Positions 18,239 through 20,953 of a stretch of DNA of 23,844 nucleotides are shown one piece after another. The translations under genes and the position numbers were made by a program. Source of the stretch: a virus (lineage: Duplodnaviria; Heunggongvirae; Uroviricota; Caudoviricetes); IMG/VR virus record IMGVR_UViG_2531839668_000007; one strand, given 5' to 3'. The notes under the pieces are model-generated. The model worked only from the letters and a program-made list of their open reading frames with translations, was not told the DNA's origin and did not search any database. The first letter of the stretch is position 1, and each line of letters opens with the position of its first letter.

Positions 18239-18246
18239 ATGATAAA
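18239..18246. repeat. Target site duplication (left copy) ATGATAAA
   Basis: The 8 bp immediately outside the left inverted repeat are identical to the 8 bp immediately outside the right inverted repeat (20946-20953). Confidence 0.85.
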
Positions 18247-18299
18247 GTAACCGGCTCATTTAAACCGTCTGGTCTGTTTCCTCCGGCTCTACAAAAATA

Positions 18300-18977
18300 A
18301 TGTCCATCATTTTTAATGGACACTATCGTATGAAACACCGGACCTGGATCACTGAAGCTTTACGTCTTCACTTTGAAGAACATTTACCCCGGGTTGTGGC
18401 CGGGCGTCGCCTGGGTGTACCAAAATCAACAGTTTGTAGTATGTTCGTGCGCTTTCGGAGAGCTGGCCTTTCGTGGCCTTTGCCCGCAGGCATGTCGGAG
18501 CAGGAACTTGATGCCTGCCTTTACGGACAATTTTCCACGGTACCAGTCGTACGTCCTGAAAGCACCGTTATATCCGAAGCCCCCGTGGTAAAAAAACGTC
18601 CCCGGCGGCCCAACTTCCCTTATGAGTTTAAAATCGCCTTAGTGGAGCAGTCACTGCAGCCCGGAGCCTGTGTGGCGCAGATCGCCCGGGAAAACGGAAT
18701 CAACGATAACCTGCTCTTCAACTGGCGCCATCAATACCGGAAAGGTGGCCTGCTGCCTTCCGGAAAAAATATGCCGGCACTGCTTCCCGTGACGTTAACG
18801 CCGGAGCCGGATAATAAAATCCCGGCCCCCGCACAGGAACCAGAGCAGATAAATACACCGTCCGACAGTCTGTGTTGTGAGCTGATTCTGCCGGCCGGAA
18901 CTCTCAGGCTTAAAGGTAAACTGACGCCGGCGTTATTACAGACACTTATCCGCGAAATGAAAGGGAGCAGCCACTGA
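18300..18977 (+). CDS. tnpA: IS66-family accessory protein TnpA (orfA)
   Basis: The C-terminal half (RRPNFPYEFKIALVEQSLQPGACVAQIARENGINDNLLFNWRHQYRKG) has the helix-turn-helix region typical of IS66 orfA. The true start may be internal: the N-terminal ~75 aa carry an IS21-like motif (LSWPLPAGMSEQELDACLY) and may not be translated. The stop overlaps the tnpB ATG. Confidence 0.65.
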   Translation: MSIIFNGHYRMKHRTWITEALRLHFEEHLPRVVAGRRLGVPKSTVCSMFVRFRRAGLSWPLPAGMSEQELDACLYGQFSTVPVVRPESTVISEAPVVKKRPRRPNFPYEFKIALVEQSLQPGACVAQIARENGINDNLLFNWRHQYRKGGLLPSGKNMPALLPVTLTPEPDNKIPAPAQEPEQINTPSDSLCCELILPAGTLRLKGKLTPALLQTLIREMKGSSH

Positions 18978-19324
18978 TGATATCTCTCCCTGCCGGTTCG
19001 CGTATCTGGCTGGTTGCCGGTATCACCGATATGCGAAATGGTTTTAACGGCCTGGCATCAAAAGTTCAGAACGTCCTGAAGGATGACCCGTTCTCCGGAC
19101 ACCTGTTCATCTTCCGCGGACGCCGGGGTGACCAGATAAAAGTGTTGTGGGCTGACAGTGACGGACTGTGCCTCTTCACCAAACGCCTGGAGCGGGGCCG
19201 CTTCGTCTGGCCAGTCACCCGTGACGGCAAGGTGCACCTTACTCCGGCTCAGTTATCCATGCTTCTTGAAGGTATCAACTGGAAGCACCCGAAACGAACG
19301 GAACGCGCTGGAATCCGCATATAA
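18977..19324 (+). CDS. tnpB: IS66-family TnpB (orfB, 115 aa)
   Basis: MISLPAGSRIWLVAGITDMRNGFNGLASKVQ... is the characteristic IS66 Orf2 family sequence as recalled; overlaps tnpA in a TGATG arrangement. Confidence 0.85.
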   Translation: MISLPAGSRIWLVAGITDMRNGFNGLASKVQNVLKDDPFSGHLFIFRGRRGDQIKVLWADSDGLCLFTKRLERGRFVWPVTRDGKVHLTPAQLSMLLEGINWKHPKRTERAGIRI

Positions 19325-19343
19325 CCCGTTGTAAAGTGAGGAT

Positions 19344-20915
19344 ATGGACACCTCACTTGCTCATGAGAACGCCCGCCTGCGGGCACTGTTGCAGACGCAA
19401 CAGGACACCATACGCCAGATGGCTGAATACAACCGCCTGCTCTCACAGCGGGTGGCGGCTTATGCTTCCGAAATCAACCGGCTGAAGGCGCTGGTTGCGA
19501 AACTGCAACGTATGCAGTTCGGTAAAAGCTCAGAAAAACTTCGTGCAAAAACCGAACGGCAGATACAGGAAGCACAGGAGCGAATCAGCGCACTTCAGGA
19601 AGAAATGGCGGAAACGCTGGGTGAGCAATATGACCCGGTACTGCCATCCGCCCTGCGCCAGTCTTCAGCCCGTAAACCGTTACCGGCCTCACTTCCCCGT
19701 GAAACCCGGGTTATCCGGCCGGAAGAGGAATGCTGTCCTGCCTGTGGTGGTGAACTCAGTTCTCTGGGATGTGATGTGTCAGAGCAACTGGAGCTTATCA
19801 GCAGCGCCTTTAAGGTTATCGAAACACAACGTCCGAAACTGGCCTGTTGCCGGTGCGACCATATCGTGCAGGCACCGGTGCCTTCAAAACCCATTGCACG
19901 CAGTTATGCCGGAGCGGGGCTCCTGGCCCATGTCGTCACCGGAAAATATGCAGACCATCTGCCGTTATACCGCCAGTCAGAGATATACCGCCGTCAGGGT
20001 GTGGAGCTGAGCCGTGCCACACTGGGGCGCTGGACTGGTGCCGTTGCTGAACTACTGGAGCCGCTGTATGACGTCCTGCGCCAGTATGTGCTGATGCCCG
20101 GTAAAGTCCATGCTGATGATATCCCCGTCCCGGTCCAGGAGCCGGGCAGCGGTAAAACCCGGACAGCCCGGCTGTGGGTCTACGTCCGTGATGACCGTAA
20201 CGCCGGTTCACAGATGCCCCCGGCGGTCTGGTTCGCGTACAGTCCGGACCGGAAAGGTATCCATCCACAAAATCACCTGGCCGGTTACAGCGGTGTGCTT
20301 CAGGCCGATGCTTACGGTGGTTACCGGGCGTTATACGAATCCGGCAGAATAACGGAAGCCGCGTGTATGGCTCATGCCCGGAGAAAAATCCACGATGTGC
20401 ATGCAAGAGCGCCCACCGACATCACCACGGAAGCCCTGCAGCGTATCGGTGAACTGTATGCCATCGAGGCAGAGGTCCGGGGCTGTTCAGCAGAACAGCG
20501 TCTGGCGGCAAGAAAAACCAGAGCCGCGCCACTGATGCAGTCACTGTATGACTGGATACAGCAACAGATGAAAACACTGTCGCGTCACTCAGATACGGCA
20601 AAAGCGTTCGCATACCTGCTGAAACAGTGGGATGCACTGAACGTGTACTGCAGTAATGGCTGGGTGGAAATCGACAACAACATCGCAGAGAACGCCTTAC
20701 GGGGAGTGGCCGTAGGCCGGAAAAACTGGATGTTCGCGGGTTCCGACAGCGGTGGTGAACATGCGGCGGTGTTGTACTCGCTGATCGGCACATGCCGTCT
20801 GAACAATGTGGAGCCAGAAAAGTGGCTGCGCTACGTCATTGAACATATCCAGGACTGGCCGGCAAACCGGGTACGCGATCTGTTGCCCTGGAAAGTTGAT
20901 CTGAGCTCTCAGTAA
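19344..20915 (+). CDS. tnpC: IS66-family transposase TnpC (523 aa)
   Basis: Long ORF with an N-terminal leucine-zipper-like coiled coil, CxxC...CxxC zinc-finger region (CPACGG...CCRCDH) and a DDE-type core, as in IS66 transposases. Confidence 0.85.
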
Positions 20916-20945
20916 ATATCAATACGGTTCTGACGAGCCGCTTAC

Positions 20946-20953
20946 ATGATAAA
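20946..20953. repeat. Target site duplication (right copy) ATGATAAA
   Basis: Identical to 18239-18246; directly abuts the right inverted repeat. Confidence 0.85.

Follow-up and report, generated by a model that had tools for sequence, protein, structure and literature searches.

The stretch of DNA analysed here (the window; 23,844 nucleotides, virus record IMGVR_UViG_2531839668_000007) is a lambda-like prophage at the lambda attachment site, adjoining ybhC. Just upstream of its xis and int genes there is an insertion sequence (IS) of 2699 bp, with 55% G+C as against 45-47% in the flanks, that belongs to the IS66 family and appears to be a copy of ISCro1. An earlier first-pass annotation of the window, made from its letters alone, had placed a recent-looking IS66-family insertion here, between a terminator and a 55-codon open reading frame (ORF) upstream of xis. 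This location has held up (Table 1): a pair of terminator-like hairpins precedes the element, the short ORF follows it and xis comes next. The essentials of the earlier interpretation are borne out as well.

Table 1. The ISCro1 copy, its immediate surroundings and features of the host prophage, in window coordinates.
Feature	Position	Strand	Evidence or remark
Complete ISCro1 copy (IS66 family), 2699 bp	18247-20945	+	boundaries set by the empty site; full-length 100.0% identity to RefSeq-labelled copies
Left copy of the 8-bp target-site duplication, ATGATAAA	18239-18246		single-copy in empty-site genomes and in lambda
Right copy of the 8-bp target-site duplication, ATGATAAA	20946-20953		its final A doubles as the first base of the 55-codon ORF's ATG
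Left terminal inverted repeat, GTAACCGGCTCATTTAAACCGTCTGG	18247-18272	+	starts GTAA
Right terminal inverted repeat, read inward, GTAAGCGGCTCGTCAGAACCGTATTG	20920-20945	-	starts GTAA
tnpA, accessory protein, 225 aa, helix-turn-helix	18300-18977	+	Pfam HTH_Tnp_1, 55 bits; NCBIfam NF038385 (IS66_access_TnpA), 294.9 bits (cut-off 150)
tnpB, IS66 accessory protein, 115 aa	18977-19324	+	Pfam TnpB_IS66 (PF05717), 136 bits; NCBIfam NF033819, 128.9 bits (cut-off 50)
tnpC, DDE transposase, 523 aa	19344-20915	+	Pfam DDE_Tnp_IS66 (PF03050), 347 bits, profile positions 1-283 of 284; NCBIfam NF033517, 479.6 bits (cut-off 180)
Two tandem terminator-like hairpins with T-runs	18176-18196, 18207-18226	+	fold -24.2 kcal/mol, z = -3.5
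55-codon ORF	20953-21120	+	homologue of the unannotated lambda ORF 29285-29118
Terminator-like hairpin with T-run, between the 55-codon ORF and xis	21110-21129	+	fold -16.1 kcal/mol, z = -3.3
xis, excisionase, 72 aa	21160-21378	+	Pfam Exc, 139 bits; intact
int, lambda-type tyrosine integrase, 356 aa	21356-22426	+	Pfam Phage_integrase, Arm-DNA-bind_1; intact
Lambda att core, prophage end adjoining ybhC, GCTTTTTTATACTAA	22500-22514	-	one exact match, none expected by chance
Deletion junction, ninG fragment fused to bet fragment	13952-13954		blastn against lambda; both genes partial in RefSeq
nleH1-1 (cargo)	1-882	-	matching RefSeq record
nleC (cargo)	1708-2727	-	matching RefSeq record
nleB2 (cargo)	2761-3741	-	matching RefSeq record
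lpxR (cargo)	11658-12617	+	matching RefSeq record

Structure of the element

The genes tnpA, tnpB and tnpC are all uninterrupted and all lie on the plus strand; the stop of tnpA overlaps the start of tnpB by a single base (TGATG, 18975-18979), and a spacer of 19 nt separates the tnpB stop from the tnpC start. Both Pfam and NCBIfam place all three products in the IS66 family at scores well over the curated cut-offs, which bears out the earlier description of a complete IS66-family element with three intact ORFs. Besides DDE_Tnp_IS66, the TnpC transposase has a leucine zipper (LZ_Tnp_IS66), a zinc finger (zf-IS66) and the C-terminal domain DDE_Tnp_IS66_C. TnpA, which corresponds to the product WP_001373818.1 in the matching RefSeq record, is of the long, 225-aa form, with an N-terminal extension of ~100 aa (window 18300-18600, plus strand) ahead of HTH_Tnp_1. 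This extension has no Pfam match, and because the NCBIfam model NF038385 spans it, the protein is a known long form of IS66 TnpA.

The terminal inverted repeats are imperfect, as first described: both begin with GTAA and they agree at 18 of 26 positions, and they are not the ends of a different IS family. On either side of the element stands ATGATAAA, without a mismatch. A direct comparison of the two flanks shows that their identity ends at exactly 8 bp, as the first-pass annotation had it, and the octamer has only four occurrences on the plus strand of the 23.8-kb window.

With respect to IS679, all three genes are reportedly required for transposition. IS679 and IS66, the prototypes of the family, are reported to be built alike (Han et al. 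2001, J Bacteriol 183:4296): of their three genes tnpA overlaps tnpB and tnpC begins a little further on, the terminal repeats start with GTAA and 8 bp of the target are duplicated; the element here is a different member of the family. Judged from its sequence, it has every feature by which the IS66 family is recognised, a membership that is independent of the name ISCro1, and the copy is full-length and predicted to be competent for transposition. If it behaves like the rest of its family, TnpC, aided by TnpA and TnpB, would bind the GTAA-initiated terminal repeats, the element would be inserted where the two target strands are cut with an 8-bp stagger, and the duplication would arise as the gaps are repaired.

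Probable identity with ISCro1

Many copies with 100.0% identity to the element over its 2699 bp are found in E. coli, in chromosomes as well as in plasmids, and bear the RefSeq label 'IS66-like element ISCro1 family'; this upholds the earlier view that the element has not decayed. At least 80% of it is held by 1493 of the 5426 complete E. coli genomes and by 1399 plasmid records from Escherichia, Salmonella, Shigella, Klebsiella and Citrobacter. ISCro1 as published (PMC12115866) belongs to the IS66 family, measures 2699 bp and duplicates 8 bp of its target; it takes its name from Citrobacter rodentium ICC168, where there are 24 copies (PMC3072379). The element in the window resembles it in length, in the 8-bp duplication and in the gene order tnpA-tnpB-tnpC, and no difference was found; only the insertion site is particular, between a holE-like pseudogene and the 55-codon ORF of a lambda-like prophage. 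Nothing that we found contradicts the identification and, by all the evidence at hand, the element would seem to be ISCro1 itself, in other words an IS that is already known and very common.

It might be objected that 'ISCro1 family' in RefSeq is a similarity-based name, and that an element called ISCro1 is 2,824 bp long in one paper (PMC8764528), so that the label could be wrong and the element could be IS679, ISEc8, ISEc23 or a member of another family altogether. Given the described ISCro1 of 2699 bp with its 8-bp duplication, we regard this as extremely unlikely, and the IS66-family placement stands whatever the name. ISEc8, an IS66-family element found in the Stx prophages of O157:H7, likewise has lambdoid prophages among its targets, but its identity to our element is only about 71%, over ~840 bp of tnpC (just 31% of the element). 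On this weak match and on the family scores, another IS family or another IS66 member was rejected.

An exact scan of species-representative genomes for the 26-bp left end did not find it in the C. rodentium representative, and the type copy of that species may differ by at least one base in its left end. The matches were mostly to a single Escherichia draft and to two contigs of metagenome-assembled genomes (MAGs). In the draft, Escherichia sp. MOD1-EC7003 (L008-L042), the exact ISCro1 left end stands at ~30 contig ends, which indicates a large ISCro1 expansion that fragmented its assembly. One of the MAG contigs, attributed to 'Clostridiales' (L033, SFGJ01000083.1), is 2699 bp long, the element's own length, with the left-end 26-mer at base 1; the other, attributed to Segatella copri (L013, JAJXBQ010000315.1), also has the exact left end. 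Both are probably mis-binned enterobacterial DNA.

Empty sites and other copies

The first-pass annotation had proposed a search for the empty site in related strains, and at the sequence level the uninterrupted site with a single ATGATAAA is indeed present in related E. coli. A 1200-bp query, in which both flanks were joined with one ATGATAAA, aligned without a break and at 100.0% identity along all 1200 bp to four E. coli chromosomes, and at least 80% of this query was covered in 31 genomes. Reading of the locus confirmed the empty site in FORC 064 and Z1323PEC0012, both of which carry the same prophage. In lambda the octamer is found once at the homologous place (29292-29285): the flanks in the window map to lambda 29340-29285 and 29292-27724, and the overlap is exactly those 8 bp. 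Because the site is single in both the empty-site E. coli and lambda, the repeat is a true target-site duplication, and a chance repeat or a pre-existing duplication is ruled out. The uninterrupted sites prove that the element arrived by transposition: one event put it into the ATGATAAA octamer of a lambda-like prophage and duplicated those 8 bp.

Seven independent copies that are identical or nearly identical (six of 2699 bp in E. coli and one of 2698 bp in Citrobacter) each have a different 8-bp duplication. An eighth copy, also identical, lies between bioA and ybhB in Z1323PEC0012 (L004 1001-3699) and has a 9-bp duplication, GTTTCTGGC. It sits at the opposite end of the prophage in a strain whose xis-side site is empty, and it is absent from E. 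coli 98-3133, otherwise near-identical to Z1323PEC0012. The polymorphism of this identical copy shows that ISCro1 has recently been active in the lineage, and its duplication that the length of the repeat varies somewhat. No obvious target motif emerged from ~40 left flanks and the eight duplications.

The host prophage

Just one complete genome, that of E. coli O157:H16 98-3133 (NZ_CP051001.1), covers the whole window. The two differ by one substitution and two 1-bp gaps (positions 700, 4170 and 11463), and the window is either another assembly version or a very close relative of 98-3133. The segment from the element to the att core (20946-22514), which contains int, is 98.7% identical to lambda. 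The att core at the other end of the prophage, adjoining ybhB in 98-3133 and outside the window (L001 1656-1670), has one mismatch, ACTTTTTTATACTAA.

The remainder of the prophage is marked by two deletion junctions. At the first, window 13491-13954, equivalent to lambda 43043-42580 (ninG), abuts window 13953-15819, equivalent to lambda 32221-30354 (the end of bet, and exo); the Pfam NinG match of the ninG fragment begins at profile position 47. What is missing is lambda 32222-42579, ~10.4 kb with gam, kil, cIII, N, nutL, pL, rex, cI, pR, cro, cII, O, P and most of the nin genes. At the second junction (~6997-6999), window 6997-7722, equivalent to lambda 1018-293 at the start of the terminase gene, abuts lambda 15077 in tail gene I; lambda 1019-15076 has no counterpart in the window, and nearly all of the head genes and most of the tail genes are absent. 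RefSeq lists many of the prophage genes as partial. Such a prophage is beyond induction or packaging, and it does not have the immunity region, N/pL, replication genes and structural genes expected of a functional, inducible lambdoid prophage.

According to the RefSeq record of 98-3133, the prophage carries as cargo the type III effectors NleH1-1, NleC and NleB2 and the lipid A deacylase LpxR, with the effector genes at the far end of the prophage and lpxR in the late region. These genes are kept intact amid decaying phage genes, and nleD lies just outside the window. The effector-carrying lambda-like prophages at the ybhC site of O157:H7 have the same site, the lambda-type int and xis and the cargo nleB2, nleC and nleH, but they cover just 63-72% of the window. 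Compared with these O157:H7 versions, the prophage here is much more degraded, with the ninG-bet and the terminase-tail gene I deletions, and it carries ISCro1.

Carriers and history of the insertion

The left junction of the insertion is present in exactly five of the 5426 complete genomes and the right junction in the same five: 98-3133 (O157:H16, USA), STECUZB006 (Belgium), BA92 (O2:H16, Brazil), Z1323CEC0012 (chicken, South Korea) and MFDS1001074 (food, South Korea). These carriers agree completely in their junctions, in the duplication and in the orientation of the element, and all of them also have in common a truncated DNA-packaging gene beside a partial terminase gene. At that place the empty-site relatives FORC 064 and Z1323PEC0012 keep an intact packaging gene, nohD, together with ylcI and a Rha-family gene. 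Since FORC 064 combines the same ninG-bet deletion junction with an empty site, this deletion preceded the insertion.

The best explanation, and one in which we have great confidence, is that a full-length ISCro1 entered an already defective prophage in one transposition, was inherited vertically and had minor local consequences. A small E. coli lineage received the insertion from its ancestor, in which the prophage had by then lost its immunity, replication, head and tail genes, and has passed it on vertically ever since. The first-pass term 'recent-looking' is apt for the sequence identity of the element, but not for the insertion itself, which is fixed in a small lineage of five genomes from four countries; that five genomes carry it rules out a strain-specific, very recent insertion.

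This explanation has some weak points. The element was named ISCro1 from RefSeq product labels and from the published size and duplication, not from an alignment with the reference entry, and there is the deviating published length mentioned above. The activity of the copy and everything said on transcription are deduced from the DNA sequence. Finally, the differences in Z1323CEC0012 could mean that the insertion is older there or that recombination has taken place; that the site was hit a second time is less likely.

The copy in Z1323CEC0012 (L005 16459-19157) has 16 substitutions, nine of them within element positions 581-599, and its flanks are ~0.5% divergent. In MFDS1001074 the copy (L006 15648-18343) is 2696 bp long, tnpA and tnpC being frameshifted by three 1-bp deletions; either the common insertion has begun to decay here or the deletions are homopolymer errors of the assembly.

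Rather than a single inherited insertion, one could imagine a hot spot that was hit more than once, or a precise loss of the element from the empty-site strains. The divergence of Z1323CEC0012 could be read in this way, the more so as the flanks of FORC 064 and Z1323PEC0012 are identical to the window, and an IS hot spot occupied by ISCro1 has been reported upstream of afaA. Nevertheless, such a history is quite unlikely in view of the identical junctions, duplication and orientation in all five carriers and of the absence of any consensus among the surveyed target octamers. Moreover, Z1323CEC0012 has the truncated DNA-packaging gene of the other four carriers and shares a further deletion in the tail region with BA92. 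Its junctions are 100% (left) and 98% (right) identical to those of the window, a mosaic that fits later recombination; the whole pattern looks like later recombination or gene-conversion patches and not like a second insertion.

Consequences for the neighbouring genes

Upstream of the element, at 17875-18156 on the plus strand, there is a phage-borne homologue of the theta subunit of DNA polymerase III (Pfam DNA_pol3_theta, 98.9 bits) with an in-frame stop at 18025-18027; this holE-like gene is a RefSeq pseudogene in the carriers examined and in both empty-site relatives. The second of the two tandem hairpins that follow is conserved in lambda, and the insertion point is 13 bp beyond it. On the other side, the insertion lies directly before the start codon of the 55-codon ORF and severs this ORF from what stood upstream of it; neither Pfam nor NCBIfam has a match for the ORF. 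Because the native GGCG 7 nt before the ATG (GGAG in lambda) stays with the left copy of the duplication, the ORF has probably lost its likely ribosome-binding site. The hairpin between the ORF and xis is inside a stretch that aligns to lambda without a mismatch.

Lambda expresses its xis gene from pL with the help of N antitermination; int is transcribed both from pL and from the cII-dependent pI. The first-pass annotation had proposed that the insertion may alter int/xis expression. This is unlikely to matter and largely moot, because the pL, N, cII and pI control had already been deleted; polarity on a pL-driven xis and int was set aside for the same reason, and the hairpin at 21110-21129 stands before xis. 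Read-through from tnpC could probably reach the 55-codon ORF but would be expected to stop before xis because of this strong terminator-like hairpin, and the local consequences of the insertion would be minor.

A functional insertion, which blocks or newly drives xis and int and so alters the excision of the effector-carrying prophage, must nonetheless be considered. The element lies upstream of xis at a distance of 207 bp, and the two are oriented alike; the plus strand has no terminator-like site between the tnpC stop and the 55-codon ORF; int, xis and the ybhC-side att core are intact, the ybhB-side core of 98-3133 having a single mismatch; and in ST131 an ISCro1 insertion reduced the transcription of the adjacent gene. 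With pL, N, nutL and cII deleted, however, no normal xis/int transcription is left to change, a strong terminator-like hairpin separates the 55-codon ORF from xis, and the search for an outward-facing promoter-like site at the element's right end found none. A functional role is thus very unlikely. The more specific proposition that read-through from tnpC has become the main source of transcription for the promoterless xis and int, against which the hairpin and the lack of an outward promoter-like site both argue, deserves hardly any credence; if it were true, the excision or locking-in of the nleH/nleC/nleB2 island would be tied to the expression of the IS.

The element as a recombination substrate

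ISCro1 has served as a substrate for homologous recombination in plasmid fusions (PMC12115866), and the host genome has 7 to 9 matching places. The idea that the present copy may act as a recombination substrate is therefore plausible in general, but no sampled genome shows any use of it: in the 5426 genomes either junction is always accompanied by the other, which gives no sign of a rearrangement by this copy, and we do not retain it as a proven substrate.

Significance

The insertion site is lineage-specific but a routine polymorphism that raises no open question and contradicts nothing known, and the finding matters little beyond annotation. It is useful as a clean, well-bounded example of ISCro1 and because it marks a small lineage of E. 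coli that carry effector genes.

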